Shown here one piece after another: positions 36,834-52,264 of a DNA stretch of 53,356 nt. Position 1 is the stretch's first letter, and each line of letters starts with the position of its first letter. The notes under the pieces are model-generated. The model was not told the origin of the DNA, made no database searches, and saw only the letters and a program-made list of their open reading frames with translations. The DNA lies in sequence record DRR723986_5841. The stretch is one strand, 5' to 3'. The position numbers and the translations under genes are program-made.

Positions 36834-36872
36834 GTCTCTACTCCTTCAAGTTGAAAATTTCCGGGACTGGCA

Positions 36873-37175
36873 TTACGCCGCGTGGCCCCAGTACAGTTCA
36901 AATTCATCCTCTGTTTCATTGATGCTGCCCGACAGGGAAATCAGGTTCAGGTGAATTTCCTGAAGATCCCAGTCACGCCCCATCAGGTCGGACACGCTTT
37001 GGCGCTTGACCACCAAACGGCCGGGCGACTCGATCTTGACCATTGCCGGAAACTCCTCGACTGTGGCTTGCGGGTTGTCTTCCCGAATGGCCTCGACAAT
37101 GTTGCGGGTATCGTCGTTGGTGACAAATGCAATAAACACCGGCGTTTTCGTTCGTTCTGGGGTTGGCGGGTTCAT
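36873..37175 (-). CDS. dmpM: Phenol hydroxylase regulatory protein P2
   Basis: IVEAIREDNP, PAMVKI, NLISLSG (MmoB/DmpM family). Confidence 0.94.
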   Translation of the reverse strand: MNPPTPERTKTPVFIAFVTNDDTRNIVEAIREDNPQATVEEFPAMVKIESPGRLVVKRQSVSDLMGRDWDLQEIHLNLISLSGSINETEDEFELYWGHAA

Positions 37176-38185
37176 GCTGCAGCTCCGGGTGTTTTCAAAC
37201 CGATCTTCTTGGCGCGCACCAGCAGGTCTTCCTTAATCTGCATGAAAATGCTGGCGGCTTCTTCTGCAAACAATGAGGTCATCAAAGGCTGCAAAGCGCG
37301 GGTAGTTTCTGTCATCCAGATGTCGAACCAGCGGCTCAGTATTTCCTTGTTCTCTGGTGATTCATCCACTGCGGTTTTGATGGTGGAGTCCACCCAACGT
37401 TGGGTTTCGGCAAACCATTCCTGCATGAAGTTGGTACACATGGAGAAGGTTTGGCCTGCCATTGGATTCAGGCGTGTTTCAAGGTGCTTGTAAAACATGG
37501 GGTACACCAGTCCGTCCATCACAAAATTCTGTGCCAGAAAAACTTCAAACCAGTCTTTTGTGACAAACAGGTTTTCCATGCTGCGGCGAAGTTCTTGCCA
37601 CTCGGGCGTGTGCAGCCAGTGCTGCTTGCCCACTTCCAATGAGTCGCCCGTGTTGCCATCCAGCAGCAAACCAAGGCGGCTGACATATTGCGCGAGGCCC
37701 AAGCGGTCCATGGTGTTGTACATGGTGGCTTGTGTAATTGCGGCGCCGTAACCGAAGCTGGTACAAAAGCAGTTGTTCATGTTGGCGCCCCACTCGTAGT
37801 GGCGAAGCGGCAGCACAGCGAAAATTAAATGTTCTTTGTCTTTCTCGCTCAGGTTGTAGAACACACCACGCTTTTCTGCGAACTCAAACTGCTTCTCGGC
37901 CGCATCCTGTTGCTTGGCACGGTTCATGGTGTACACGCCGTAGTAGTACTGTCGTGGGTCTTTGAAGGTGTACCAATCGGCCATTTTGATGGCTGTACGG
38001 GCAGTGTCGTACAGGTCGTACTGTGGGTCCCAAATGGGGCGGTAGTGGAAGTTGGTGTCCGACTGCATGTCGAACGTGGCTTCCTGATAGCGCGACGCAG
38101 GCTTGTCTGCACCCAACCGGCGGGCCACATTCGAGAATGTGTTGCGAAGTTGTTTGATGTTCGACGTTTTGATGTCGACTTGCAT
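37172..38185 (-). CDS. dmpL: Phenol hydroxylase beta subunit P1
   Basis: RYQEAT, NFHYRPIWDP, DPRQYYY, PLRHYEWGANMNN, DWFE. Confidence 0.95.
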   Translation of the reverse strand: MQVDIKTSNIKQLRNTFSNVARRLGADKPASRYQEATFDMQSDTNFHYRPIWDPQYDLYDTARTAIKMADWYTFKDPRQYYYGVYTMNRAKQQDAAEKQFEFAEKRGVFYNLSEKDKEHLIFAVLPLRHYEWGANMNNCFCTSFGYGAAITQATMYNTMDRLGLAQYVSRLGLLLDGNTGDSLEVGKQHWLHTPEWQELRRSMENLFVTKDWFEVFLAQNFVMDGLVYPMFYKHLETRLNPMAGQTFSMCTNFMQEWFAETQRWVDSTIKTAVDESPENKEILSRWFDIWMTETTRALQPLMTSLFAEEAASIFMQIKEDLLVRAKKIGLKTPGAAA

Positions 38186-38219
38186 GATGTCTTCTCCTTT
38201 CCTCTATTTATTTGGTTTT

Positions 38220-38516
38220 TTATTCGCTGACGCCGGCCTGGCCGAATTGCCACTTCAGGCGTTCGTAGTCCAGCCAGGCGCATTGCTCGGCAGTCAATTC
38301 CACAGCATTGTGTTGTTTGCAAAATTCGCGGAACTGATCGAATTGCATCACCAGTTCCACGCAAAGCTCTGGATCGCCAATCGAAAACTCGAACTCGACA
38401 AAGCGATTGTTCAAGGTGCCGGTGACGCGCACATAACGTGGAATGGACGCCTCCAGAATTCCGTTCAGCTCCGGTGGCGGGGTATCGCTTTTGGATGTTT
38501 TGACTTCTTTGATCAT
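38220..38516 (-). CDS. dmpK: Phenol hydroxylase assembly protein P0
   Basis: YVRVTG...FVEFEFSIGDPELCVEL...F.EFC; AGAGGG RBS before ATG 38516. Confidence 0.9.
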   Translation of the reverse strand: MIKEVKTSKSDTPPPELNGILEASIPRYVRVTGTLNNRFVEFEFSIGDPELCVELVMQFDQFREFCKQHNAVELTAEQCAWLDYERLKWQFGQAGVSE

Positions 38517-38552
38517 TTGGAACCCTCTTGCTTGATTTCCCATGTAAAGGGG

Positions 38553-38567
38553 GCAAGGGGTATGCCA
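38553..38567 (-). promoter_or_regulatory. Sigma54 -24/-12 promoter of the phenol hydroxylase operon
   Basis: Minus strand TGGCATACCCCTTGC = GG-N10-GC. Confidence 0.88.
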
Positions 38568-38574
38568 TGTTATC

Positions 38575-38587
38575 TAAGTGATTGAAA
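38575..38587 (-). promoter_or_regulatory. IHF-like site
   Basis: Minus strand TTTCAATCACTTA, one mismatch to WATCAANNNNTTR, between the UAS and the sigma54 promoter. Confidence 0.55.
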
Positions 38588-38642
38588 TGATGGGAATTAT
38601 AAAAAATAGAGGATGGATTCTAAGAAATTTACGGGTGCTGAA

Positions 38643-38681
38643 AAGATCAATTGCTGCGGTGCAAGTTGATCAAATGGTGAA
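38643..38681. promoter_or_regulatory. Two DmpR/XylR-type upstream activating sequences
   Basis: AAGATCAATTGCTGCG (38643) and TTGATCAAATGGTGAA (38666) resemble the TTGATCAATTGATCAA palindrome. Confidence 0.65.
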
Positions 38682-38724
38682 ACGAGGGCGGGGTGCCCAC
38701 TCATGTGGTTCCCCGCTTCTTTTG

Positions 38725-40596
38725 TCAGGGCTGAGGCACCGGATTATTTCTGCACGGTTGTGAATCCACCGTGCCACATTCGGTCAATCCCGGTTTGACA
38801 TTCGCGTTGGGCAATTCACCCAGCACGATCTTGGACGGATGTTCGGCATCGTGATGCACAGTCACCATTTGTGGCGTCAGGATTGACTGAAAACCCCATA
38901 GTCCGATCATGCTGGGGTTTTCAACATACATACGGATGCTGGAGCCTTTGCGAAACACATGGCTGAAGGGCATCATTTCAACACGCAATAATTCCGGCAC
39001 GCCGGGCGTCATGTCCTTCAGTGATTCAGCGGTGTGCGGGTGGTAGGGTTGTAGCGCGCTTGAACGTTGTTCGTCCAGGGCCCGATGTGATGCACGCAGC
39101 CATCCGCGCTGAACGTATTGTTCTTGTCCATCAGGCCGAACCTCCACCATGGTCACCTGCAGGTCAACATCGTTGGCAGTGGTGGATACCCACAAATCTG
39201 CACTTGAGACGCCGTAGCTGGTGAAGGTGTTCAACAACGGTTTGGTGGTGAATACGGCACGACCCAAGGGATTGTCAGGAGAAACAGTCCATGTGTTGGC
39301 GGTAGCACCGCCAGTTTGCGTGCGGTCAAACACCCCTGTACTGTCAATTACATTGGGTGCGGGAAGCGGGTAGCTGTAGCTGGTGCCGGGCCCTGCTGCT
39401 GCGGTCTCTTTGTCGTTCAGCATCAAGCCACCAGGAGCCAGATGAAACTCCTTTGCTTTTACTTTCACTGGAAGTTTTGGCAGTGTTGTTACGCTATTGG
39501 GAGCCAGGTTGGCTGCGTCGGTTTCATGCCAGATATGCACCTTGGGTGTTTTGTCGAAACCGTTGTCGATTCCTTTCAAGAAGTGATCATAAAACGATTG
39601 AAGTTGGGCCATGATGCCGTGGGAATACTGATGTATGGTGTGGTGGCCATTGCTGGTGATGATCCAGGTTTTGTTGGGATCCAGTTGGTCGTAGAAGTAA
39701 GCACCTCGGCCACCTGTTTGTTCATCTTGCCAGGCCTGGGTCGCAAACACGGGCACATTGATATTGGACACCCAGTTTTTGATGCTGTGCGCGTGGTGCC
39801 AGGCGTCGTCGTTCGGGTGCTGCGGAATTTGAACCGCCAGTGAGTTCAGGTTGTTTTGAGCGGCATGAAGTGCGCCGTGTTGCAAACACTTGTTGTCGCC
39901 AATTTGCAGGGCGTCGCGATAGGCGATGGCCCAGTCGGCATTCAACCCGGCACCCCAAGCGGGTGGAAATGCGGCGTTCAGAATACCCCCCGGAAAACCG
40001 ATGTCCCGGTAGGTGTCCACCACTGGCATACCGGGGCCTACAGCCACCAAGTGTTTAGGCTGCATGCTGGCGACCCACAATTGCATGATGCCTGCATAGG
40101 AATAGCCATACATGGCCACTTTGCCGTTGGCCCAGTGGCGTTGAGCCAGCCAGTCCACCGCAAATGCACCGTCTTGTGCCTGTTGCAGGTTAAACAGCTC
40201 CCAGCTGTCGCTAGAGCACGCTGAGCCGCGCAGGTTCACGCCCACAATCGCATATCCTTTGGCGAGCATGTCATACACGAAAATGTTGGCCGCACGCGAT
40301 GGATCGCTGCCACCAAAATAGCCCTCGTACATCATCAGTACTGGAAAGGGGCCTTCACCTTCGGGTAACCAGGCGGTGTAACGCAGCTCGTTGCCATCGG
40401 GCAACGGAATGTAGCCCCATTCAGTAACTGAGGCTGTGGCTGGGTTGACGGCTACGTCGGATGGCTGCACCTGAGGTGCTGCGGTACCCGAGGGGCTTGT
40501 CCGCGCGGCGCTGTTTTCACCCGATCCACCGCAGCCTGCAAGCAGTGTGAAGCATGTGGTGAGCAGGATGGATGTGAATAAATGATACGTCCTCAA
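38725..40596 (-). CDS. CocE/NonD-family (S15) serine hydrolase, lipoprotein
   Basis: TTG start with GGAGA RBS, lipobox LAG-C, GPFPVL, RGSACS, nucleophile GYSYAG, WQDEQ, C-terminal jelly-roll (GWLRASHR). Confidence 0.87.
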   Translation of the reverse strand: MRTYHLFTSILLTTCFTLLAGCGGSGENSAARTSPSGTAAPQVQPSDVAVNPATASVTEWGYIPLPDGNELRYTAWLPEGEGPFPVLMMYEGYFGGSDPSRAANIFVYDMLAKGYAIVGVNLRGSACSSDSWELFNLQQAQDGAFAVDWLAQRHWANGKVAMYGYSYAGIMQLWVASMQPKHLVAVGPGMPVVDTYRDIGFPGGILNAAFPPAWGAGLNADWAIAYRDALQIGDNKCLQHGALHAAQNNLNSLAVQIPQHPNDDAWHHAHSIKNWVSNINVPVFATQAWQDEQTGGRGAYFYDQLDPNKTWIITSNGHHTIHQYSHGIMAQLQSFYDHFLKGIDNGFDKTPKVHIWHETDAANLAPNSVTTLPKLPVKVKAKEFHLAPGGLMLNDKETAAAGPGTSYSYPLPAPNVIDSTGVFDRTQTGGATANTWTVSPDNPLGRAVFTTKPLLNTFTSYGVSSADLWVSTTANDVDLQVTMVEVRPDGQEQYVQRGWLRASHRALDEQRSSALQPYHPHTAESLKDMTPGVPELLRVEMMPFSHVFRKGSSIRMYVENPSMIGLWGFQSILTPQMVTVHHDAEHPSKIVLGELPNANVKPGLTECGTVDSQPCRNNPVPQP

Positions 40597-40711
40597 AGTC
40601 TGTCTCCGGTATTGATTTCTTTTTGTGTATCTTGTGGTGATACTTCGGAAGCAGAATAGGTGGATGTTGGGCAGTGCGATAGAAGGCAGTTGCTACTTTT
40701 GTATGTACTTG

Positions 40712-41494
40712 CTACGAGTCATCACAAATTTGTAATTCAACCAGCTTGTTGTTTGCAAGGTACGAGGGAGTGAGTGCAAAGTAACGCGTGAAAGTACGGC
40801 TTAGGTGCGAGGAATCAGAGAAGCCGATTTCATGGGCCACCTCAGACAATGTTTTGTTGCGCACAAAAAGCTCTGCCGCGTAACGCATCTTGATCCACAG
40901 CAGGTATTGCCGAATTGAAATGCCCACTTCGTCTGTGAACAGGTGGGCCAGACGGCTCTCCGACAAGCCGCACAGAGCCGACAGCTTTTTTAGTTCAGCA
41001 ACTTGAGGAATGTGGGTGTGAAGCCAGGAGGCGACCATGTCTACACGTCGGTCAAGTGGTGGTGCCCCAATAATTTCCGGAAAAAGCGCCTGAAGAATTA
41101 CCTCGGAACTGTGACGAAGTTCATGGCAAGTGCGTTTGCCCGACATGCTGTCATACGCATGTTGCTGTGCGGTTTCATTCAGTTGTGACTGCAGGTCAAG
41201 AATATCCCTGCCATCCAGAATTTCGCGCAGTTTTCGGGCGTAAGGGTTGATTGGATCCACATTCAAACTGTAAAGACAGGTGTTGTTGGCGCTCAGCGTA
41301 CGGGCCACGTTGGATCCAATCAAAAATGCGCGACCACTGTGCTTGTGGCCTGACGACTCAACTTCAAAGTCGCCATCCGTGCCGATCAGGATGACCGTGG
41401 ATGGACGGCAGCTTTGCTCGCCCAAAAAGTAGGGGGACATGTAGATAAAACGATCTCGCCAGATCGACAGTGATGAGATGTGCGCATGGCTCAT
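40712..41494 (-). CDS. AraC-family transcriptional regulator
   Basis: C-terminal double HTH LSESRLAHLF...VAHEIGFSDSSHLSRTF. Confidence 0.92.
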   Translation of the reverse strand: MSHAHISSLSIWRDRFIYMSPYFLGEQSCRPSTVILIGTDGDFEVESSGHKHSGRAFLIGSNVARTLSANNTCLYSLNVDPINPYARKLREILDGRDILDLQSQLNETAQQHAYDSMSGKRTCHELRHSSEVILQALFPEIIGAPPLDRRVDMVASWLHTHIPQVAELKKLSALCGLSESRLAHLFTDEVGISIRQYLLWIKMRYAAELFVRNKTLSEVAHEIGFSDSSHLSRTFTRYFALTPSYLANNKLVELQICDDS

Positions 41495-41565: not shown

Positions 41566-42147
41566 TTAAAGCCCCAATCCTGCCCCAACGCCAAAGAGGG
41601 TGGCCGCACCCAGTGCTGCAAACATCGCAGCAGCTGTTCGGTGCACCAGCTTCATCGGAATTTTTTCAGCCAGCTTGTCGCCAGCAAACACCGCAGGCAC
41701 GTCGGCAATCAGCATGCCCAGTGTAGTGCCCGCAACTACCATGAGCACATCGTTGTAGTGTGCTGACATGGCCACGGTGGCGATTTGGGTTTTGTCGCCC
41801 ATTTCCGCTAAAAAGAAGGTGATGAAGGTGGCGCCGAACACCCCCAGCTTGGTCGCCAGTTGGGTTTCTTCATCTTCGATTTTGTCTGGAATGAGTGTCC
41901 ACACTGCCATGGCGATGAAGGAGGCGCCAAGTACCCAACGCAGAACAGATGGATCCACATTGGCGGTGATCCAGCTACCCACCACGCCAGCCAGGCCGTG
42001 ATTGATCAGGGTGGCCAAAGTAATTCCAATGATGATGGGGACTGGTTTTTTGAAACGTGTGGCCAACAGAAATGCAAGAAGCTGGGTTTTATCCCCAATT
42101 TCAGCAAGTGCAATTACACCGGTGGATACGAGAAGTGCCGAAGACAT
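41566..42147 (-). CDS. UPF0016/TMEM165/GDT1-family Mn2+ exporter (MneA-like)
   Basis: Two E-x-G-D-K-T-Q motifs (AEIGDKTQ, AEMGDKTQ); preceded by a yybP-ykoY riboswitch. Confidence 0.93.
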   Translation of the reverse strand: MSSALLVSTGVIALAEIGDKTQLLAFLLATRFKKPVPIIIGITLATLINHGLAGVVGSWITANVDPSVLRWVLGASFIAMAVWTLIPDKIEDEETQLATKLGVFGATFITFFLAEMGDKTQIATVAMSAHYNDVLMVVAGTTLGMLIADVPAVFAGDKLAEKIPMKLVHRTAAAMFAALGAATLFGVGAGLGL

Positions 42148-42217
42148 TTAAAAGTTCCTGGGCCTGGAAAAACCGAATGACCACGCAGCTTCTCCAGGCC
42201 AATCTGGAAGCCGTGTA

Positions 42218-42330
42218 GTCAAAGGTCTTGCCAAGTTCAAAAACCGCTTACGCCATAGCCTGTATAAGATGTTAGGCCAAGTGTGTTGACGTAAGCCTTT
42301 CCAAGCGGAAAGAGGCTACTCCCCAATGAG
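42218..42330 (-). ncRNA. yybP-ykoY manganese riboswitch
   Basis: Minus strand reads GGGGAGTAGCC...CGTCAACACACTTGG...GGCAAGACCTTTGAC, the conserved aptamer core; a GGCCTGGA/TCCAGGCC hairpin lies between it and the RBS. Confidence 0.9.
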
Positions 42331-42427
42331 TGTGGAGATGATATTTGACGCAAGATGATAAATCAAGGGTGTATGCAGAGAAGTCACACTAATTCATTAC
42401 TTTTTGAAACTGCGATTATTTCCAAAA

Positions 42428-42460
42428 GTTAATTCAGCCTTAATTTTCGAACCCTAACCT
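42428..42460 (+). promoter_or_regulatory. PmrA/QseB-type box with -10 element
   Basis: GTTAAT-TCAGC-CTTAAT (YTTAAK-N5-YTTAAK type), then TAACCT at 42455. Confidence 0.7.
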
Positions 42461-42487
42461 GCACACATCAACAAGCAGGAGTTAGGC

Positions 42488-43081
42488 ATGAAACCGTTTG
42501 AATACCACACCCGTCAGCATCACACCGGGTCGCTGCCAGTGATTCAGGAGCCCTGTGCAGATTCAAAAATTCGTCAGTTCATTGCCGATACATTCATGCA
42601 TCACTACGGCGCCACCATCGAATCCTATTGCGACCGGTTGATTGGTGTTTGCTCGCCGCAAGGCACCATGCTGGCTGCAGCAGGATACAACCTTGCCGAA
42701 GAGGGCCCCCTGTTTCTGGAACAGTACCTTGACTTGCCACTGGAGAAGCAGATTCAGCAGCAACTGGGCATGGACATTACCCGGTCTGAAATTGCCGAAG
42801 TTGGAAACTTGGCTGCGCTTCAAGCTGGTGGTACTCGCATGCTGATTGAGTTGATGACCCAAAGACTGCATCAGCAAGGGCGTCGATGGGTGGCATTCAC
42901 TGCCACCAAAAGCCTGATCAACAGTTTTCATCGCATGGGTTTGTCCCCCGTTATTTTGGCGCCAGCAAGCCCGGCACGTGTCAAAAATCCCAGCGCGTGG
43001 GGCAGCTATTACCAGCAAAACCCGCATGTTGCGATTGGTGATATTCAGCTTGGCCACGCCCGTCTGGGAGGCCAGCAATGA
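42488..43081 (+). CDS. 'Thermostable hemolysin' family protein (GNAT-like acyltransferase fold)
   Basis: PLFLEQYLD, EIAEVGNLA, WVAFTAT, WGSYY..P.V motifs. Confidence 0.85.
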   Translation: MKPFEYHTRQHHTGSLPVIQEPCADSKIRQFIADTFMHHYGATIESYCDRLIGVCSPQGTMLAAAGYNLAEEGPLFLEQYLDLPLEKQIQQQLGMDITRSEIAEVGNLAALQAGGTRMLIELMTQRLHQQGRRWVAFTATKSLINSFHRMGLSPVILAPASPARVKNPSAWGSYYQQNPHVAIGDIQLGHARLGGQQ

Positions 43082-44559
43082 AGTCCAATTCTTTCTATTC
43101 ATTGCTCGAACAGTACACGGGTGAAATCCACGAAGGCCCCAATCGGAAGTTTGATACCAACGCGCTGCGTGGGCAGGTTAAAGCCTGGATTACCCATTTG
43201 TCACAGAACCACCCCCTTGGGCAGGCAGTCGGGATTTTGGCTGACAATAGCCTCGCTTGGATTGCATTGGACTTGGCTTGCGCCAATTTGAACATTGCCT
43301 TGGTGCCATTGCCTGCCTTTTTTACAGATGAGCAACTGAAACACGCCATACGCGAAGCGGGCATCAGCACCTTGGTCACTGACCATGGCCAGCGCGCGCA
43401 GCAACTTGGTTTTCAGTTGACTCCACAAAACCTGGATGCACCCATGCTGATGTTGCGCAGGTTGCAGCTCGACGGATCGACGCCCGCACAGATTCAGAAA
43501 ATCACCTTCACCTCAGGCACTACCGGCGAACCCAAAGGGGTGTGCCTGACTGAGGCCCAGCAGTTGGCTGTGGCCGAGGGTTTAATGCACGCGACCGAAA
43601 GCCTGGGCATAAAACGCCATTTGTGTTTGTTGCCGCTCGGTGTGTTGCTTGAAAACATTGCGGGTGTTTACGCGCCCATGATGGCGGGTGCGGACATTGT
43701 TTGCCCACCGCTGGCGCAAACCGGGTTGAAAGGCGCCGCTTCATTTGATGCGCAGCAATGCCTGGACACCATTGCAAGTTACCAGGCTGAAAGCATCATC
43801 TTGCTGCCCCAAATGCTGATGGCCTTGTTGCAAGCCAGTACACCCGGTGACAGCCGCTGGAAAAGCCTGAAGTTCATTGCGGTGGGCGGTGGCAAGGTGC
43901 CCATGGGCCTGTTGACGTTGGCCAAGTGGTTCAACTTACCGGTTTATGAGGGTTATGGCCTAAGTGAGTGTGCCTCGGTGGTGTGTTTGAACACACCTGA
44001 AAACAACCGTCTCGGTACCGTCGGTAAGCCCATTCAAGGTGTCGAAGTGAAAGTGGACGCCGATCAGGAAATCTGGGTGAAAGGCAGGCACTTCAGTGGT
44101 TACCTTCACGATTTGAAAGCGGGCAAGGGTAATGCGCTTGCACAAGGCGAATGGTTGCCGACTGGAGACCTCGGCAAACTGGATGCAGATGGATACCTGA
44201 CCATTCATGGTCGCAAAAAGAATCTGATCATCACCGGGTTTGGGCGAAACATCAGTCCGGAATGGCCCGAAGGTTTGTTGCTGTCCACTGGTTTGTTTTT
44301 GCAAGCCGCGGTGTTTGGCGAAGGTCAAACAGGCCTGACCGCCATGCTGGTGCTGCGCGATCCACGCGATGTGAACAGGGTGGACGACGCCTTGGCACAG
44401 ATCAACCGCCAACTGCCTGATTACGCGCGTATCTCGGCCCATCTGGTGATCGAGGAACCTTTTTCATTCAACAACGGATTGTGCACAGCCAATGGTCGCA
44501 TACGACGAGACGCCATTTGGCAGGCCTACAACAGTCAACTCAACGGAGAAACAGCATGA
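43078..44559 (+). CDS. AMP-binding adenylate-forming enzyme (acyl-CoA synthetase-like)
   Basis: TFTSGTTGEPKG, YEGYGLSE, TGDLG, GRKKN; the A10 region reads TANGRIRR. Confidence 0.9.
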   Translation: MKSNSFYSLLEQYTGEIHEGPNRKFDTNALRGQVKAWITHLSQNHPLGQAVGILADNSLAWIALDLACANLNIALVPLPAFFTDEQLKHAIREAGISTLVTDHGQRAQQLGFQLTPQNLDAPMLMLRRLQLDGSTPAQIQKITFTSGTTGEPKGVCLTEAQQLAVAEGLMHATESLGIKRHLCLLPLGVLLENIAGVYAPMMAGADIVCPPLAQTGLKGAASFDAQQCLDTIASYQAESIILLPQMLMALLQASTPGDSRWKSLKFIAVGGGKVPMGLLTLAKWFNLPVYEGYGLSECASVVCLNTPENNRLGTVGKPIQGVEVKVDADQEIWVKGRHFSGYLHDLKAGKGNALAQGEWLPTGDLGKLDADGYLTIHGRKKNLIITGFGRNISPEWPEGLLLSTGLFLQAAVFGEGQTGLTAMLVLRDPRDVNRVDDALAQINRQLPDYARISAHLVIEEPFSFNNGLCTANGRIRRDAIWQAYNSQLNGETA

Positions 44560-45242
44560 GTTCATTTTTTCAAACCCTTCAGGCCAGTACGGAAAAAAGC
44601 CGCCAGCAACTGATTCAGTCAGCGATTATTCAGGAGGCACTGCGCGGCGAAGTTACACGCGGGCAGTACCTGGCGTTCCTGGGGCAGGCTTACCACCATG
44701 TTCGCCACACCGTCCCTTTGCTAATGGCTTGTGGCAGCCGTTTGGGTTCGTCGCATGAATGGCTGAAACGGGCGATTACTGAGTATATTGAAGAAGAATA
44801 TGGTCACGAGCAGTGGATTCTGAATGACATCGCCGCTGCGGGTGGCAACCCTGCTGAAGCGGCAGCCTCCAAACCCCACATCTCCACGCAGGCCATGGTG
44901 GCGTACGTGTATCACCAGATCGATCGCAAAAACCCGGTAGGTTTTTTTGGCATGGTGCATGTGCTTGAGGGCACAAGCACGGCATTGGCCACGGTGGCTG
45001 CCGAGAAAATCCAAACCAATTTGGCCCTGCCCGATTCTGCTTTCTCATATTTGACCTCGCACGGCAGCCTTGACCTGGAGCACGTCAAGTTTTTTGAAAC
45101 CTTGATGAACCAGCTTACTTCGCAGGAAGACAAGCAGGCAGTGATCGACACTGCAGATGCCATCTATCACCTGTACGGTGAAATGTTCCGTGCTTTGCCG
45201 CAGGCCAACTCTGACGCTTTGTTTGATGAGGTGGCGGCATGA
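44556..45242 (+). CDS. Heme-oxygenase-like diiron (CADD/TenA/PqqC-fold) redox enzyme
   Basis: Ligand-type motifs EEEYGH, VLEG, HGSLDLEH; ATGA coupling to the upstream gene. Confidence 0.85.
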   Translation: MSSFFQTLQASTEKSRQQLIQSAIIQEALRGEVTRGQYLAFLGQAYHHVRHTVPLLMACGSRLGSSHEWLKRAITEYIEEEYGHEQWILNDIAAAGGNPAEAAASKPHISTQAMVAYVYHQIDRKNPVGFFGMVHVLEGTSTALATVAAEKIQTNLALPDSAFSYLTSHGSLDLEHVKFFETLMNQLTSQEDKQAVIDTADAIYHLYGEMFRALPQANSDALFDEVAA

Positions 45243-46042
45243 GTTCCCAAACACGTTTTCGTGCAGCACTGACTGGCGCAACAGGTGGCATTGGCCGTGC
45301 CATGGCATTCGCCTTGGCACCTCGGTCCGAGTCTCTTTTGTTGATGGGGCGTAGCGTGCAAGCCTTGAATAATTTGAGAATGTCCCTGCAGGTGCGGTTC
45401 CCGAACCTGATCCTCAACTGCCTGGCGGGAGATTTGCTGGACCCGACGTATCTAAAAGAGATATCAGATTACACACGACAAAATGAGGTGAACCTGTTGG
45501 TTAACAACGCGGGTGTCAATCAGTTTGGTGCTGTCAAAAATCTGGACGCCGGTGCGCAGGCTCGAATTGTAGAAACCAATTTATTGGCCCCAATGCAATT
45601 GACTCAGGCCATGCTGCCAACCTTGCTGAGGCAGGGTGATGCCCAAGTTATTCAGGTGGGTTCAATTTTTGGTTACATCGGTTATCCAGGCAATGCTGCT
45701 TACTGTGCCAGTAAATTTGGCTTGCGTGGCTATGCTCAGGCCCTTGCTCGCGAGCTGGCCAATTCCCCCGTCAAAGTCAAATACCTGGCCCCGCGCGCCA
45801 CGGCCACGGCGATCAATGAAGGTGCGGTGGACAACTTGAACAAAGCCTTGGGGGTAGCCAGCGACAGCCCGGAGTTTGTGGCCAGTCAGTTGATTCACCT
45901 CATCGACAGCCCACGATTTGACTTAAAGCTAGGTTTTCCGGAACGCCTGTTTGTGTTCATGAATCAGTTGTTCCCCCGCATTAACGACAACGCCATTCAG
46001 AAACAACTACCCACGATTGAAAAGCATTGGAGTACATCATGA
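45239..46042 (+). CDS. Short-chain dehydrogenase/reductase
   Basis: TGATGGIG, NNAG, catalytic YCASK. Confidence 0.92.
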   Translation: MSSQTRFRAALTGATGGIGRAMAFALAPRSESLLLMGRSVQALNNLRMSLQVRFPNLILNCLAGDLLDPTYLKEISDYTRQNEVNLLVNNAGVNQFGAVKNLDAGAQARIVETNLLAPMQLTQAMLPTLLRQGDAQVIQVGSIFGYIGYPGNAAYCASKFGLRGYAQALARELANSPVKVKYLAPRATATAINEGAVDNLNKALGVASDSPEFVASQLIHLIDSPRFDLKLGFPERLFVFMNQLFPRINDNAIQKQLPTIEKHWSTS

Positions 46043-46680
46043 GAAAGCACATGAACAAGTTTGCCATGGGTTTGTTAACGTTGACACAACTGGCTTGGGC
46101 TGTGACGAGCGAGGAAGTGCAAACGCTGCAAGCCGAATGGGCGCAGGCCATGTACCAGGACGAGGGTAAAAACAAGGAAACCCATTTGGGCAAATTGGCC
46201 GAACAATCGCGTGCTGTGGTCGCCAACAATCCAAAGGATGCAGACGCCCTGATTTGGGAAGGCATTGTGCTGGCCAGCTATGCTGGCAAAGTCGGCGGCT
46301 TGGGTGCACTGAGTTTGGTCAAAGAGGCCAAGGCGGCATTTGAGGCGTCTATCGCGCTGAACCCCAAAGCGCTCGATGGTTCTGCCTACACCAGTTTGGG
46401 GTCCTTGTATTACCAGGTGCCCGGTTGGCCTTTGGGTTTTGGCGATGATGACAAAGCAGAGGAATATTTGAAGAAAGGTTTGGCTATCAACCCTAATGGA
46501 ATCGATCCCAATTACTTTTACGGCGATTTTTTGTTTCGTGAGGGTCGAATCCAGGAGGCTGAAGCGGTACTGAACAAGGCATTGCAGGCACCTGCACGGC
46601 CTGGTCGAGAGTCTGCCGATGCTGGTCGTCGCAAAGAAATTCGTGATCTGCTTGCAAAGATCAAGACAGGGAAAAGTTGA
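46039..46680 (+). CDS. Exported TPR-repeat protein
   Basis: Signal peptide ending AWA, helical repeats, LYYQVPGWPLGFGD, NPNGIDPNYFYG, PARPGR..AD.GR. Confidence 0.83.
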   Translation: MRKHMNKFAMGLLTLTQLAWAVTSEEVQTLQAEWAQAMYQDEGKNKETHLGKLAEQSRAVVANNPKDADALIWEGIVLASYAGKVGGLGALSLVKEAKAAFEASIALNPKALDGSAYTSLGSLYYQVPGWPLGFGDDDKAEEYLKKGLAINPNGIDPNYFYGDFLFREGRIQEAEAVLNKALQAPARPGRESADAGRRKEIRDLLAKIKTGKS

Positions 46681-46724
46681 TCCCGTTACACTGGGAAAAC
46701 TGAATTACTGGACAGGTTGATTAA

Positions 46725-47393
46725 TTGAGAGTGTTGCTCGTCGAAGATGATGAACTCATTGCCAACGGTGTTCGGGAGGCCTTGCGCCGACGTGCGTACC
46801 AAGTGGATTGGGTTAGCAATGGCAGGGATGCCTTGAATGCTGCCATTGACAATCCGTTTGATTTGATCATTCTGGATTTGGGTTTGCCCGGTCTGGATGG
46901 ACTAGACGTGTTGTCTGCCTTACGGCAGCATCAAAAGCGCACGCCTGCTATTGTGCTCAGCGCACGGGGTAGCACCCAGAATCGCATTGATGGACTCAAC
47001 GCGGGGGCAGATGACTATCTGGTCAAGCCATTCGATTTGGAGGAGTTGTTTGCCCGTATTCATGCTGTTGAGCGTCGCACCAGCGGTGCCGCCACCAATG
47101 TTTTGAAAATGGGTGAAATTGAGCTTGACCTGGCTGCCATGAGCGTTTTGTATCAAGGCATTGAAGTGACGCTGCAACGCCGTGAATTCAGTTTGTTGAA
47201 AAAGTTGATGGAAAGTCCCAGACAGGTATTTACGCGGGAGCAACTCGAGGAGTCTTTGTATGGTTGGACCTCTGATCTGGGGAGCAATGCAATAGATGTT
47301 TATGTGCATAACATACGAAAAAAAATGTACAGCGATGTAATCAAAACCCTACGCGGTGTGGGTTATCGAATAGACCCCAATCTTGCAAACTGA
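46725..47393 (+). CDS. PmrA/QseB-like OmpR-family response regulator
   Basis: LLVEDD, LDLGLPG, GADDYLVKPF, SNAIDVYVHNIRKK, TLRGVGY. Confidence 0.93.
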   Translation: MRVLLVEDDELIANGVREALRRRAYQVDWVSNGRDALNAAIDNPFDLIILDLGLPGLDGLDVLSALRQHQKRTPAIVLSARGSTQNRIDGLNAGADDYLVKPFDLEELFARIHAVERRTSGAATNVLKMGEIELDLAAMSVLYQGIEVTLQRREFSLLKKLMESPRQVFTREQLEESLYGWTSDLGSNAIDVYVHNIRKKMYSDVIKTLRGVGYRIDPNLAN

Positions 47394-47400
47394 GCAATCC

Positions 47401-48804
47401 ATGAAATATTCCATGCGCAGGCGTATTTTGATTGCCTTGGTGCTGGCACTGGCGGTCATCATGATCACTGCTGGCGTAATTAGTTATCGAGTTGCACTTC
47501 ACGAAGCGGATGAAATTTTCAGTGCGCGTTTGGCCACTTCTGCACGTGTATTGGAAACACTGCTGGCCCGCCAGGTTGAGCATGCAACCATTGATCAGCC
47601 CGTTGTCATTTCATTGCCCGCAGAATTGAGTGAAGCCGATCCAGACGAGCCCACTGAACTTGGACATCCGTATGAAACCAAACTGGCTTTTCAAGTTTGG
47701 AGCGACACAGGCCGTTTGCTGGTGAGATCTGAATTTGCGCCTGAAGATCGCTTGGGACCGTTGAAAGAGGGTTTCTGGGATCGCGACAGTGGTGGTGTGT
47801 CCTGGCATGTATTCACCCTGAAAAGCGGCGGGGTCTGGATAGAAGTCGCTGAAGAGGTTGGCTTGCGCGGCGAAATTGCCAGCGACGTAGGCGGTACCTT
47901 AATTACTCCGCTGTTGACGGGCTTCGCCCTGTTGATGTTGTTGGTCAACCTGATTGTGATTGTCGGATTCCGACCCCTGGCGAAACTCGCTGAATCAATC
48001 GAGCATCGAGATCCCAAAGACAATTCGCCACTGGACCTAAATAACACCCCGGAAGAGTTATTGCCGGTGGTAAATTCGCTGAACAGTTTACTAAACCGCA
48101 TGTCCGAAACATTGGCAAGGGAGCAACGTTTTACCGATTCAGCCGCGCATGAGCTTCGAACACCTCTTGCTGCGATGAGTGTTCATGCCGAAAACGCCGC
48201 CAATGCGAAAGACGAGGATGAACGAGCCATTTCATTAGCCTACCTGATGACAGGTATGAACCGCACCAAGCATCTAATTGAACAAATGTTGATGTACAGC
48301 CGCATCGGTGTCGATGCGCAGTCCGAGCCTGAGGTGCCTGTTGACTTGATCGAAGAGCTTCAATATTTGGTGAATAGCCAGCGAACGATCATTGAAGGCA
48401 GTGGTCTTCAAGTTCAGCTCAACACACCAACGCGACCAGTTTGGGTGAAGTCGCAGCGGGGGTTACTTGAAATGCTGTTGCGTAATTTGCTAGACAACGC
48501 TTGTAAACACTCCACGAAGCAAGATGTACCTGTCTCTATTGAGCTGACTGTGGAGTTGCCGTCAAACAAGGCGTGTATCCGGTTTCGCAATATGGCCGAA
48601 CCGATCGCCTCCGAGGAAATTTCGCGACTTTTTGAGGCGTACTATCGCCCAGCCAATACGCGTTCGAAAGGTCATGGATTGGGATTGGCGATTGCCCGAG
48701 AGGTGGCAGTTTTACATGGCTGGTCCCTGGAGTTGACTCGCAATTCGGCGCGAGAGGGCATCGAGTTTACCTGTAAGATTCCCGCGATTAATCCAATATC
48801 TTAG
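47401..48804 (+). CDS. PmrB/QseC-like sensor histidine kinase
   Basis: HEADEIF and GHPYETKLAFQVW periplasmic motifs, AAHELRTPL, NLLDNA, GHGLGL. Confidence 0.92.
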   Translation: MKYSMRRRILIALVLALAVIMITAGVISYRVALHEADEIFSARLATSARVLETLLARQVEHATIDQPVVISLPAELSEADPDEPTELGHPYETKLAFQVWSDTGRLLVRSEFAPEDRLGPLKEGFWDRDSGGVSWHVFTLKSGGVWIEVAEEVGLRGEIASDVGGTLITPLLTGFALLMLLVNLIVIVGFRPLAKLAESIEHRDPKDNSPLDLNNTPEELLPVVNSLNSLLNRMSETLAREQRFTDSAAHELRTPLAAMSVHAENAANAKDEDERAISLAYLMTGMNRTKHLIEQMLMYSRIGVDAQSEPEVPVDLIEELQYLVNSQRTIIEGSGLQVQLNTPTRPVWVKSQRGLLEMLLRNLLDNACKHSTKQDVPVSIELTVELPSNKACIRFRNMAEPIASEEISRLFEAYYRPANTRSKGHGLGLAIAREVAVLHGWSLELTRNSAREGIEFTCKIPAINPIS

Positions 48805-48813
48805 GATTCAAGC

Positions 48814-50451
48814 ATGAAGTTAAGGTTGTCTTGGATCACCCCGAACCAACGCATGGTATTGGTGGTTTCATTGTTCATCATGCTCACGGGCAATTACACA
48901 TTTCTAAATCGGGTTGCGGACATCTACTTTGCCGATTCAGGGCATCTGGCTTTTTTTGTTTCGGTGTTTTTTCTGTTTGCCGCTGCCACAGCGTTTCTGT
49001 TGAACTTTCTGGCTTATCGCGGCCTCACTGCGCCGGTTCTGGCTATTTTCCTGTTGATCTCCAGTGCAACAGCATACTTTACGGACAAATATGGCACCGT
49101 ATTGAATGATGAAATGCTGATCAACATGTTACAGACAAATGTATCTGAAGCAGGCGATCTTTTAAGTGTGAGCTTGGTGATTCGCCTGTTGGTGTTTGGG
49201 GTAATACCCGCTGTGTTGCTGGTTCGGTACCGGCCGAATTCTATGGGACCTGTGGCTGAAATCCGCGGAATGTTGTTCTCTGGATTGTTATTGATCCTCT
49301 TTATGGTCTTGTGTATTGCGCCGTTTACGTCGACTTACGCCAGTTTTTTTCGTGAACACAAATCAGTCCGTTTTTACGCCAATCCAACCTATGTGACTTA
49401 TTCCGCCGTGAATTTGGCAGGTCGAATATTCAAAGACCAGGGAAGTCAGAAAATTTCCGCTGTTGCAACAGATGCGAAACCGACCGAAGTACTTGAAAGC
49501 GAAGAGCCACGTGAGTTAATTGTGCTTGTAGTGGGTGAAACAGCAAGAGCAGACCGATTTTCTTTGAACGGGTACGCCCGAGAAACGAATCCGAATCTTC
49601 AAAAAGAGGAGCTAGTCAGCCTGAAAAATGTGACGTCCTGTGGCACCTCCACCGCAGTCTCGGTGCCTTGCATGTTCTCTGATTTGACTGAAACACACTT
49701 TTCACTTGAAAAGGTCGCCAAACTGGAGAATGCACTGGACGTGCTGCAGCGCAATGGTGTTGAAGTGCTGTGGCGTGATAACAATTCGGACAGCAAGGGT
49801 GTGGCACTGAGGGTGGCATACGAAAATTTTCGGACGCCTGAGAAAAACCCGATTTGTGACGAAGAATGCCGCGATGTGGGTATGTTGAAAGGGCTCGAGG
49901 ACTACATAGATCAACGTGCCGGAAAGGATATTTTGATCGTATTGCATCAAATGGGTAATCACGGCCCAGCCTACTACAAGCGCTATCCCAAAGAGTTTGA
50001 GCACTTTACACCCGTGTGTAAAACCAATGAATTGGCCAACTGCACCCGTGAAGAAATTGACAACGCGTATGACAATGCCGTTCGTTACACCGATTATTTT
50101 TTAAGTCAGGTTATTACGTTTCTCAAGAAATATGATGGGTCTCATGAAACTGCGATGTTGTATGTAAGTGATCATGGTGAGTCGCTTGGAGAATATGGCA
50201 TGTACCTGCATGGAGCTCCCAAAGCTTTCGCTCCTGAAGCGCAAACGCATGTTGCTTCCGTGGTGTGGTTCGGTTCTAATTTTGATTACAAGCTTGCTGA
50301 CTTACTCCCCTACGAGAAAGACCACTTGACACACGATGCCTTGTTCTGCACTTTGTTGATGGCTTACGAGTTGGACACGCCCACATGCTCCGAAAGTCGA
50401 AAGACGATTCAAGCGCAGCACAACTCCTCTATTGTGATTGGTCGGCAGTAA
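48814..50451 (+). CDS. eptA: Lipid A phosphoethanolamine transferase (EptA/MCR family)
   Basis: Five N-terminal TMs, VVGETARAD, CGTSTAVSVPCMFS (catalytic Thr), HQMGNHGPAY, SDHGESLGE, YLHG. Confidence 0.93.
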   Translation: MKLRLSWITPNQRMVLVVSLFIMLTGNYTFLNRVADIYFADSGHLAFFVSVFFLFAAATAFLLNFLAYRGLTAPVLAIFLLISSATAYFTDKYGTVLNDEMLINMLQTNVSEAGDLLSVSLVIRLLVFGVIPAVLLVRYRPNSMGPVAEIRGMLFSGLLLILFMVLCIAPFTSTYASFFREHKSVRFYANPTYVTYSAVNLAGRIFKDQGSQKISAVATDAKPTEVLESEEPRELIVLVVGETARADRFSLNGYARETNPNLQKEELVSLKNVTSCGTSTAVSVPCMFSDLTETHFSLEKVAKLENALDVLQRNGVEVLWRDNNSDSKGVALRVAYENFRTPEKNPICDEECRDVGMLKGLEDYIDQRAGKDILIVLHQMGNHGPAYYKRYPKEFEHFTPVCKTNELANCTREEIDNAYDNAVRYTDYFLSQVITFLKKYDGSHETAMLYVSDHGESLGEYGMYLHGAPKAFAPEAQTHVASVVWFGSNFDYKLADLLPYEKDHLTHDALFCTLLMAYELDTPTCSESRKTIQAQHNSSIVIGRQ

Positions 50452-51130
50452 ACTCAGGGCTCCTGAGGTGTTCGCTGCCATAGTAGATCAAGGGTATTGC
50501 CCAGCAGATCCAGGCTGTTGCGAGTACATGGCTGAGAAAATGGGCTCCCTTCGTGATTTGCACCGCCCCTGCCAAAGTCCCAGACAGCAACAGTAAAACT
50601 GCGACTGACTTTCTTTGTTTTCTTAGCCATGGCAAGGGGCTGTACAGCAAGACAATCCACATAAAGGCTGTGGATGCATGTCCACTCGGAAAACATCGGC
50701 CAGGCCCGGTGTTTTGAGTGTCGAATGTTCTTTCAAAAAGACGCAGATAATCAGCTGTGCCCCCATACATGGATAAGTCCCAAGGACAGCTGTGGACAGA
50801 GCTAGATTTCAACATACTAACAATCACCGCAGCCAGCAAGCTGATGGCCAATATCTTTAATATTTCTCGCCGAGCCGCCGCGTCACACTTGGGTAATATT
50901 GCTGCGATGAGTAAGCCTAGCCAAATAAGCACAGTTAGCCAGCGCAAACCGTCATGAAACAACAGTGTCAACGAGTGATTGTCTTTCAGGGGGAATCGAC
51001 TGGTTTCAGCGTCGTAGAACAGGTTGCTCAAGGCAACATCCGAGTTGGTATAGCGGTTCAGGGCAAAGCACACCAAGCCGAGTAAAAGCCACGCGACGAA
51101 GTTTTGCAAATAACGTGATCGTTGACTCAT
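50429..51130 (-). CDS. PAP2-family membrane phosphatase
   Basis: K...SCPWD, CFPSGHAS, GAHFLSH motifs; multiple TMs. Confidence 0.88.
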   Translation of the reverse strand: MSQRSRYLQNFVAWLLLGLVCFALNRYTNSDVALSNLFYDAETSRFPLKDNHSLTLLFHDGLRWLTVLIWLGLLIAAILPKCDAAARREILKILAISLLAAVIVSMLKSSSVHSCPWDLSMYGGTADYLRLFERTFDTQNTGPGRCFPSGHASTAFMWIVLLYSPLPWLRKQRKSVAVLLLLSGTLAGAVQITKGAHFLSHVLATAWICWAIPLIYYGSEHLRSPEFTADQSQ

Positions 51131-51142
51131 GCGATAGTACTT

Positions 51143-52264
51143 TCAGTTTGAGTGACCCAAATCCGACAAAGGGTGCAAGCCCTCAAAGCGAGGTTTCAGG
51201 ATGTCGTGGATCTCGTCTCCAGACAAATCACTTAGGCGAACTGGGTTCCATTTTGGTGATTTGTCTTTGTCCACAAGCAAAGCGCGCACGCCCTCCGGGA
51301 AGTCGTGGTGTACGCAGCAGCCGATGGAGGCCTGATATTCAAGCCGCAATACATCAGCCAAGTCTGCACCCGCATGGCGTTTCATCAATTCATAAGATAA
51401 TAAAGCCGAAGTGGGAGAGCCGTTTACATATGCTTGTGCTGCTTTGGCCAGCCAGGCTACCTCGCTATGTTGCAATGCGCGCAAGGATACGTCGATTTCA
51501 GCCAGATTGTCATGGTTCATTACGGCATCAATTTCTTTTGCGTGTGTATGTAACAAAGGCGTGGGTGCGTTCACTTCAAACTGTTTCAGCAGGGCAGACA
51601 ATTTCACCTTGTCCGTTTGCAGGTCGCTTTGCCAGTTTGTTTTCTCAATTGCGTGCAACACATCTGAAAACTGCGCATGTTCTATCACCGCATCGGCCCA
51701 TTTGCCCAGCAACGCATCACCCGCGTTGATGATTGCGCCAGTCAACGCCAGAAACAAACCTGTGCGCTCGGGCATGCGATGCAAGAACCATGTGCCGGCC
51801 ACATCAGGGTACAAACCAATGTGAATTTCCGGCATTGCAATGCGTGCATTGGGGCTGACCACGCGGTGCGATGCGCCTACCATTAAACCCACGCCACCAC
51901 CCATCACAATGCCGTGTGCCCAACACAAAATGGGTTTGGGGTAGGTGTGTATGCGGTAGTCCAAGCGATACTCACGTTCGAAAAATGCCTCGGCTTCAGG
52001 TGGTACTACGCCTGCCCCTACACGCTTGCTGGCGTGGTGCAAACTCACCACATCACCGCCTGCACAAAAGGCTTTGTCGCCTGCTGCGCTCAACACCACT
52101 CCTGCAATCGAATCGTCTTCCGCCCAGCTTTTTAATTGGGGGTCGAGCAGGTCGATCATGGGCAAGGTGAGTGCATTGAGTGCGGCAGGGTTGTTAAGCA
52201 CGGCGTGGCCAAAACTGTGGCCGCTTGCGGTGATGAAAGTACTGAATGTGACAGGTGCTGACAT
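51143..52264 (-). CDS. Enoyl-CoA hydratase/isomerase family, 3-hydroxyisobutyryl-CoA hydrolase-like
   Basis: ALNAL, AFCAGGD, GIVMGGGVG, AMPEIHIGLYPDV, DFPEGVRALLVDKD. Confidence 0.9.
   Translation of the reverse strand: MSAPVTFSTFITASGHSFGHAVLNNPAALNALTLPMIDLLDPQLKSWAEDDSIAGVVLSAAGDKAFCAGGDVVSLHHASKRVGAGVVPPEAEAFFEREYRLDYRIHTYPKPILCWAHGIVMGGGVGLMVGASHRVVSPNARIAMPEIHIGLYPDVAGTWFLHRMPERTGLFLALTGAIINAGDALLGKWADAVIEHAQFSDVLHAIEKTNWQSDLQTDKVKLSALLKQFEVNAPTPLLHTHAKEIDAVMNHDNLAEIDVSLRALQHSEVAWLAKAAQAYVNGSPTSALLSYELMKRHAGADLADVLRLEYQASIGCCVHHDFPEGVRALLVDKDKSPKWNPVRLSDLSGDEIHDILKPRFEGLHPLSDLGHSN

Follow-up and report, generated by a model that had tools for sequence, protein, structure and literature searches.

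A widespread five-gene cassette headed by a 'thermostable hemolysin' gene as a candidate stress-inducible biosynthetic pathway

Background

One of the closest described systems to the locus treated here is the Vibrio delta-VPH/deltaVFH locus (VP1729-VP1735), whose first protein, a member of the Pfam family PF12261 ('thermostable hemolysin'), is treated as a toxin in published work; in STRING, VP1735 is tied to VP1729 and VP1731 (PMC10469919). A gene of the same family opens a five-gene cassette in a 53,356-nt stretch of DNA (record DRR723986_5841), below called the window, the source of which is Limnobacter (the closest named record is 100% identical). The cassette encodes the PF12261 protein, an adenylate-forming (ANL) enzyme, a heme-oxygenase-like diiron oxidase (HDO), a short-chain dehydrogenase/reductase (SDR) and a tetratricopeptide repeat (TPR)-like protein, and is followed by genes for a response regulator and a sensor kinase. 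A Vibrio record has the same seven-gene order, whereas a pathway reading, the promoter and the partner genes were not found described for the Vibrio locus. The parts of the cassette resemble known families and the cassette is widespread; as an earlier, sequence-only reading of this DNA had supposed, no product or pathway has been assigned to the gene combination in the literature searched, with subscription journals mostly outside it. The cassette is very probably biosynthetic, and regulation by the adjacent two-component system is slightly more probable still.

Other described systems match single parts of the locus. UndA, BesC and SznF are HDO enzymes, as are CADD and MboA, whose six-ligand diiron site is shared by the cassette oxidase; the latter differs in forming a separate subfamily that is repeatedly fused to the ANL enzyme. 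FeeM and the coenzyme A- or acyl carrier protein (ACP)-dependent LuxI synthases TofI, BjaI, RpaI and MesI share their fold with the first protein, for which forming an amide from an activated acyl group would be the corresponding job, but the PF12261 protein has a fixed ANL partner, an invariant residue set of its own, no LuxR and no dedicated ACP. The periplasmic carriers BstC and TatT (TPAT proteins) are the best fold matches of the TPR protein. The Bacteroides N-acyltransferase ChoA, known for commendamide, has been called haemolytic owing to its lipid product (PMC5643525); it probably differs from the PF12261 protein in GNAT subfamily, and it is a single gene. The BqsRS, PmrAB and QseBC systems resemble the regulatory genes of the window in being OmpR-type pairs with a periplasmic H/RExxE motif and a TTAA(G/T)-N6 repeat at the -35 position, and in having lipid A modification genes within the regulon, whereas the window system has a GHxYE motif of its own and the five-gene cassette as its predicted main target. 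A similar layout, with biosynthesis genes ahead of the regulator, is seen in speD2-speE2-PA4775-pmrAB of P. aeruginosa.

Organization and spread of the cassette

The five genes are coupled by four ATGA stop/start overlaps, at 43078, 44556, 45239 and 46039, as the sequence-only reading had it. The response regulator, the kinase and eptA follow on the same strand, with 44 bp between the TPR and regulator genes, abutting regulator and kinase genes, and 9 bp between the kinase gene and eptA. All eight open reading frames lie where that reading had placed them and belong to the families it had named, and it was right that a carrier protein gene is absent, the gaps between the genes leaving no room for one. 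Further features are a convergent PAP2 gene, the lack of a box before eptA itself in the window, and the indel nature of 42344-51157. The features are as follows.

42344..51157: indel block with the promoter, the five-gene cassette, the two-component system, eptA and PAP2, flanked by a manganese riboswitch and an enoyl-CoA hydratase gene
42429..42444, + strand: direct repeat TTAAT-N6-TTAAT, predicted response-regulator binding site; the only exact match in the window, kept upstream of orthologous cassettes
42455..42460, + strand: predicted -10 element TAACCT, ten bases past the second half-site; TA-N3-T is conserved at that spacing
42488..43081, + strand: PF12261 'thermostable hemolysin', a predicted LuxI/FeeM-fold acyltransferase of 197 aa (Pfam 186.7 bits)
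43078..44559, + strand: ANL enzyme of 493 aa (PF00501, PF23562), a distinct subfamily that has the motif LLEN and carries Arg in place of the A10 lysine
44556..45242, + strand: HDO of 228 aa (PF14518, 109.9 bits)
45239..46042, + strand: classical SDR oxidoreductase of 267 aa (PRK09072 family; NF006565 279.8 bits, cut-off 238)
46039..46680, + strand: exported TPR-like protein of 213 aa with the BstC/TatT hydrophobic-ligand carrier fold (signal-peptide-like N-terminus, model, profile)
46725..47393, + strand: OmpR-family response regulator, PmrA/QseB-like (PF00072, PF00486)
47383..48804, + strand: sensor kinase with a 2CSK_N domain, periplasmic HExxE (HEADE, residue 40) and GHPYE; alternative ATG at 47401
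48814..50451, + strand: EptA phosphoethanolamine-lipid A transferase, intact, 46.8% GC (NF028537)
50429..51130, - strand: PAP2 membrane phosphatase, convergent with eptA (PF01569)

The PF12261 profile matches 1976 clusters (50% identity) at E 1e-10, and the family is found in 74/401 sampled genomes of the phylum and in 39/401 of the class. Gene order was followed in three sets of loci: the 80 best of 290 named matches, 39 phylum loci (40 picked for spread from the 74 genomes, of which one was a duplicate) and the class matches save the two weakest (37/39). The loci span at most 20 kb and many are incomplete, gene-order counts having the loci with room as denominators; related loci are not independent. 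The ANL gene follows the first (GNAT) gene in 72/72, 37/39 and 36/37 loci of the three sets (145/148 in total), and all five genes are present in 63/64, 31/38 and 30/35 (124/137). The set is found in many bacteria that are unrelated to one another; the earlier reading had it recurring in proteobacteria under the 'thermostable hemolysin' label. Regulator and kinase genes directly follow the cassette in 59/64, 10/38 and 20/35 loci.

Some loci depart from this pattern. Genes for a cytochrome b561-dihaem cytochrome c, a DUF1924 protein and a dihaem cytochrome c are inserted in the cassette at L205:6559-8717 (genes of similar size occur in L206), and a PNPOx-like gene and a radical SAM gene at L188:4624-6074; the inserted genes may supply electrons or add tailoring steps. 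Additional copies of PF12261, with no ANL gene, lie at L144:13050-14421 and L147:5764-6408, in one case as a tandem pair; the genomes concerned belong to family f6 and have the full cassette as well.

Within the genus Limnobacter, an orthologue of the oxidase (at least 49% identity) is found in 11/26 genomes and an eptA match in 16/26, the two being adjacent in 3. The nearest genome (G001, left flank 99% identical) has 55 bp in place of window 42344-51157, and the flanks of the block are likewise joined in G407 and G405, while G413 carries the cassette and two-component system at the same site without eptA-PAP2. Identity to G411 is 83-91% for the first four genes but 99-100% for the stretch from the TPR gene to PAP2 (46039-51130), which points to a recombination boundary inside the operon and suggests that the right half of the block was recently exchanged.

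Outside the indel and divergent from the cassette, a yybP-ykoY manganese riboswitch (42152-42336, - strand) precedes a GDT1-family cation exporter gene (41566-42147, - strand). The region 35292-41494 holds what we take, from the translations, to be multicomponent phenol hydroxylase-like genes, together with the gene of a lipoprotein-like hydrolase (623 aa) and that of an AraC regulator, both missing there in G407 and G405; three tRNA genes lie at 1-308. Two seawater metatranscriptome contigs (X17, X18) match 41609-46632 in pieces; contigs cannot show transcription, and the long records suggest possible DNA. A generic promoter and terminator scan of the window gave nothing beyond chance level.

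Probable control by the adjacent two-component system

The box TTAATTCAGCCTTAAT at 42429-42444, taken by the sequence-only reading for a PmrA-type box at the head of the operon, is the sole exact TTAAK-N6-TTAAK match in the 53 kb window. A search allowing one mismatch gives 7 matches against 4.8 expected, which is chance level, so that the window alone is little proof of the box and conservation makes the case. The exact box lies 5' of the first gene in 18/20 family-even loci with a two-component system downstream and in 0/17 without one; over a wider count that includes the window, the exact repeat occurs at most 330 bases upstream in 53/74 loci with the regulator gene directly downstream and in 8/28 without. 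Most loci missing the exact repeat have a one-base variant or, in Pseudomonas, TTCAGA-N5-TTCAGA at the same place, a shift that suggests altered regulator specificity. Loci with this Pseudomonas repeat ahead of the first gene are L063, L065, L076, L091, L094, L095, L097, L098, L102 and L103. Ten bases after the second half-site, a -10 hexamer TA-N3-T is conserved among 62 distinct sites (T 85%, A 97%, T 98%), giving a conserved promoter of the activator type. The BqsR box likewise is TTAAG(N)6TTAAG and overlaps the -35 region (PMC4358008).

Kinases encoded near cassettes (n=79) contain HExxE in 67/79 and GHxYE in 71/79 cases; the ExxE-type HExxE motif has been named as the PmrB iron motif (PMC4358008). 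The regulator and kinase score below the PmrAB and QseBC cut-offs of NCBIfam (PmrA 219/330, QseB 210/345, QseC 224/475 and PmrB 152/314 bits); the system would work in the manner of PmrAB and QseBC, and these scores do not make it a member of either family. The earlier claim of a PmrAB-like system is supported as regards control of the cassette by a neighbour of the PmrAB/QseBC type, and is weakened by the scores below both sets of cut-offs. In P. putida, PP_2713-2714, which correspond by annotation only, are labelled QseBC (PMC12112638).

The PF12261 protein

With 186.7 bits against a curated cut-off of 27, the first protein belongs to the delta-VPH family. The best Foldseek matches of its predicted model (pLDDT 86.9) are TofI (E 2.6e-7, TM-score 0.57), followed by BjaI, LasI, MesI and FeeM, the FeeM structure 2g0b matching at E 1.4e-4 with TM-scores of 0.50-0.56. 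Its ESM Atlas neighbours outside PF12261 are FeeM/Autoind_synth proteins, and PF21926 is found among them. The model thus predicts a LuxI/FeeM-fold acyltransferase, in line with the earlier description of this gene as GNAT-like. The family has its own invariant set (Y80, E104, W171, G172, Y174 and P179). Searches of the PDB by sequence with the GNAT protein or profile gave no match, and profile comparison found the GNAT and TPR profiles unrelated to each other. No LuxR was found among the 12 window proteins scanned or in the 42 recurrent neighbour families, whole genomes lying outside this search. Complex prediction for the ANL and GNAT proteins, run without alignments, gave scores of 0.37, 0.00 and 0.30 against a mark of 0.34, which speak neither for nor against a complex.

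The annotation of this family would be literally true if the first gene encoded a protein haemolysin, the other genes being unrelated or supporting. Recombinant V. fluvialis protein is reported to lyse red cells and cause pyroptosis, and the protein to be present in the supernatant, while the single knockout was barely affected (PMC11033176); the V. cholerae protein has haemolytic activity, as cited in PMC4046660. Against this, the protein has a predicted acyltransferase fold, no signal peptide, hydrophobic N-terminus or membrane helix was found in it (19-residue hydropathy maximum 0.91), its gene is coupled near-obligately by ATGA to the ANL gene, and the family also occurs in free-living Limnobacter, Polynucleobacter and Massilia and in Streptomyces clusters. 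A haemolysin in its own right is therefore a highly improbable explanation of the gene.

The ANL enzyme, the diiron oxidase and the SDR

The ANL enzyme conserves TSGTTGEPK, EGYGLSE, TGDLG and GRKKNL as its P-loop, GYGxTE, TGD and hinge motifs. In a 110-sequence alignment, position 474 is Arg in 101/110 sequences and Lys in 8/110, and position 189 is V/T/L/I/A in 110/110. We take these positions to be the A10 catalytic lysine and A4 histidine sites, so that the lysine is replaced by Arg and the histidine is absent; the altered residues suggest a non-standard second half-reaction. The enzyme scores below every cut-off shown of the named NCBIfam families (best MenE, 164/330 bits). Amino acid activation of the nonribosomal peptide synthetase type was rejected, the adenylation model TIGR01733 giving 92/317 bits and a carrier domain or carrier gene being absent from the cassette. 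Of the acyl or amino-acyl unit proposed earlier, the amino-acyl alternative is unlikely for this enzyme.

The metal ligands of the oxidase (E81, H84, E138, H169, D173 and H176) show at least 95% conservation among 100 sequences, and the diiron oxidase of the earlier description thus has an intact six-ligand site. Its nearest solved relatives are 3dde, CADD and MboA; 4-aminobenzoate synthesis of the CADD type was rejected on the score to TIGR04305 (30.4/200 bits). Five loci (L121, L124, L128, L137 and L138) encode the oxidase as a fusion with the ANL enzyme, and on a quick HDO tree without bootstrap these fusions need at least four changes. The SDR has a complete catalytic set (TGxxGGIG, N114, S142, Y155 and K159); PDB searches with it and with TauD returned generic relatives only.

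In variants of the module, TauD replaces the diiron oxidase beside a GNAT-ANL pair that keeps the motifs LLE(N/Q), PEW-E and T-(N/T)GR. Such a pair is found with an SDR gene (L132), with two aminotransferase genes and an amidase gene (L133:5836-12747), with an AurF-like gene and a major facilitator superfamily (MFS) exporter gene in Pantoea (L154:7908-13343) and with genes for two methyltransferases and an amidohydrolase (L151:7904-14616). Of 21 Streptomyces matches, four plasmids were examined, and in these the GNAT-ANL-TauD triad lies inside type II polyketide synthase (PKS) clusters with an ACP; the clusters (L152, L159, L160 and L161) hold several ketosynthases, dehydratases, KS III, ester cyclases and dTDP-sugar genes along with the triad. 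An operon of this kind, with a gene for a Bcr/CflA exporter, is reported as strongly up in an rsmA mutant of Serratia 39006, the PF12261 gene 184-fold (PMC4046660). The PKS clusters, methyltransferases and MFS/Bcr exporters around these triads argue for biosynthesis. An N-acyl cyclic lysine as the product of the module found no support among the papers listed in a search for it.

The reverse direction would be degradation or detoxification of an outside lipophilic acid, captured by the TPR protein, activated by the ANL enzyme, transformed by the oxidase and SDR and conjugated by the GNAT protein. It would fit the strong induction by fungal exudate in Pseudomonas AVO110, in which genes with matching annotations and order, the regulator included, rise 38- to 389-fold, a gene set that the authors read as beta-oxidation (PMC8304167), and an enoyl-CoA hydratase gene does flank the block. 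However, PP_2708-2711 of P. putida rose together while beta-oxidation genes stayed flat (PMC5427061), the GNAT-ANL-oxygenase triad lies within polyketide clusters, the hydratase gene is outside the indel, control is of the envelope-stress two-component type and the cassette has no importer. A role in beta-oxidation was rejected, and degradation or detoxification as a whole is improbable.

The exported TPR protein

A signal-peptide-like N-terminus is found in 98/102 homologues of the TPR protein (the window protein scores 1.79 against a mark of 1.8), and a lipobox in 2/102. The model (pLDDT 97) matches the TPAT protein 8g52 and BstC (7t1s) with Z 19.9, the TPAT protein 8g53 with 19.5 and TatT (3u64) with 18.7; the alignments to TPAT proteins cover 179-189 residues, those at Z 19.9 having an rmsd of 2.6-2.9 over 186-189. 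Ordinary TPR proteins reach Z of at most 15, and PTPIP51, TTC0263 and HusA (Z 16.5) rank between these and the TPAT proteins. Foldseek agrees with the BstC/TPAT match, and profile comparison gives E 1.4e-8 to BstC. The TPR protein is thus predicted to be exported and of BstC/TatT fold. BstC is described as binding sterols, and TatT as suspected of lipid traffic (PMC10942540).

With the same regulation and core chemistry, the product captured by this periplasmic protein might instead be a small diffusible metabolite, whether metal-binding, redox-active or a signal. Cupredoxin-FTR1 iron uptake genes are part of the operon or adjoin it in 8/39 and 9/37 loci of the two broad sets (17/76; 0/80 among the best matches), and genes for cytochrome b561 (7, 1 and 0 loci in the sets of 80, 39 and 37) or a dihaem cytochrome c flank the operon or are inserted in it; the LuxI fold of the first protein, the HusA haemophore match and the exporters in the TauD-type variants point the same way. 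On the other side, the neighbours found in at least three loci include no exporter, no TonB receptor and no LuxR, and lipid carriers are the best matches of the TPR protein. A diffusible product appears rather unlikely on this evidence. Beside the two-component system, cupredoxin-FTR1 is followed wherever it occurs by a gene for a 237-aa protein with no Pfam match (L139:6088-6801, homologues in L129-L142 and L189-L202).

EptA and the link to lipid A

EptA scores 597 bits to NF028537 against a cut-off of 500, lies below all MCR cut-offs and has its catalytic motifs at 241, 276, 381, 452 and 464. Having no box of its own, eptA would be transcribed in the window by read-through from the cassette. 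A PAP2 gene adjoins eptA in L033, L034, L037, L068 and L070 as it does in the window, and thus travels with eptA. The repeat found before the cassette also precedes eptA in L068 and L070, GT2-DedA-ArnT genes in L121, L136 and L140, and lipoteichoic acid (LTA)-synthase genes in L117 and L129; these sequence matches support the view that envelope-modification genes probably share regulation with the cassette in several lineages. ArnT occurs in 0, 3 and 2 and the LTA-synthase family in 1, 2 and 1 loci of the sets of 80, 39 and 37. The co-induction with lipid A modification that had been proposed is supported by these boxes, but the tie to eptA is loose: eptA occurs in 5/80, 2/39 and 1/37 loci (8/156 in total) and is adjacent in 3 of the 11 cassette-bearing genomes of the genus, cupredoxin-FTR1 being the commoner neighbour. 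Obligate coupling to eptA was rejected.

Lipid A aminoacylation of the AlmEFG type employs a dedicated carrier protein and a membrane acyltransferase. If the cassette were to modify lipid A or lipopolysaccharide directly in the manner of Vibrio AlmEFG, as one pathway with EptA, the presence of an adenylating enzyme and a transferase under a PmrA-type box, and the recurrence of that box, across several lineages, ahead of genes for EptA, ArnT and LTA synthases, would be accounted for. However, there is no carrier gene, the GNAT protein has no membrane segment and the HDO and SDR no membrane helix, eptA is near in just 8/156 loci, and the same core occurs in Streptomyces, an organism without lipid A. 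Direct modification of lipid A has a slim chance of being right.

A proposed pathway and how the evidence bears on it

The reading that we put at about an even chance is that the five genes form a stress-inducible pathway, within a PmrAB/QseBC-type regulon, whose product is an oxidised N-acyl amide lipid with a carrier protein in the periplasm. The pathway would be turned on along with genes for iron uptake and for protection of the cell surface. From the data above we infer the lipid nature of the product, the product itself, the signal, the order of the steps and every enzyme step. The HExxE/GHxYE kinase would sense iron or a related envelope stress and the regulator would activate the promoter at 42429-42460, with positive feedback on this promoter since the regulator and kinase genes lie downstream of it. 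The PF12261 protein would join an acyl chain to an amine, the chain coming from housekeeping acyl-ACP or from the ANL enzyme; LuxI/FeeM folds use housekeeping acyl-ACP, so that no carrier gene would be needed. The ANL enzyme would adenylate a carboxylate, either a fatty acid or the N-acyl product, the diiron oxidase may act beside this step by hydroxylation, desaturation or decarboxylation, and the SDR would set the final redox state. The TPR protein would bind the lipophilic product in the periplasm. EptA would be a swappable member of the regulon, outside the pathway and, in this strain, expressed by read-through from the cassette, and 'thermostable haemolysis' would be due to an amphiphile that withstands heat, as in the case of commendamide. 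Besides the fold matches, the gene order and the promoter, points in favour of this reading are the joint rise of the AVO110 genes (PMC8304167), that of PP_2708-2711 without the beta-oxidation genes (PMC5427061), the precedent of the Bacteroides N-acyltransferase (PMC5643525) and the binding of anionic phospholipids by the V. fluvialis homologue (PMC11033176).

Several results weigh against this pathway, the main one being the report that the V. fluvialis protein is secreted and that, once purified, it is cytotoxic on its own (PMC11033176). At the first step, no member of the GNAT alignment reaches Pfam FeeM (1/88 at E 0.15) or Autoind_synth (0/88 at E<=1), which makes PF12261 a separate branch; the TM-scores of the fold matches are no higher than 0.5-0.6, and the invariant Glu is Gln in 3/4 of the GNAT copies of Streptomyces PKS clusters. 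For these three reasons acyl transfer is suggested at the level of the fold. The TPR protein is shorter than BstC and TatT and is not a lipoprotein; it scores 43/350 bits to the BstC family NF045602, its match covers the helical-repeat fold, and no BstA/BstB or TRAP partner was found near its gene among the recurrent neighbours scanned. There is no exporter within the cassette, and family f6, of another class, carries the cassette without regulator and without box. The authors of the AVO110 study see beta-oxidation and state that growth on fungal exudate needs the fadD of the cluster (PMC8304167); the relevant passage on the fadD mutant names it without a locus tag (PMC6344628). For both Pseudomonas expression sets, the match to the cassette is one of annotation and gene order rather than of sequence.

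Implications for the PF12261 family

A wider and decidedly tentative extension, less probable than the pathway itself, is that PF12261 and its Arg-A10 ANL partner form a new carrier-free amide-forming module that is plugged into different oxidases. In proteobacteria it would make an undescribed, periplasm-trafficked lipid as the core output of an envelope regulon that responds to iron, and the virulence marker known from Vibrio as 'delta haemolysin' would be the synthase of that lipid.

Genome papers list PF12261 among the virulence haemolysins, a common annotation that would be wrong if the protein catalyses acyl transfer in a lipid pathway induced by stress. In that case the old question of what delta-VPH does could be put to a direct test, and a substrate would be gained for a diiron oxidase subfamily so far unstudied, for an ANL subfamily of unusual kind and for a new carrier resembling BstC, with the conserved promoter as a guide to switching the pathway on.

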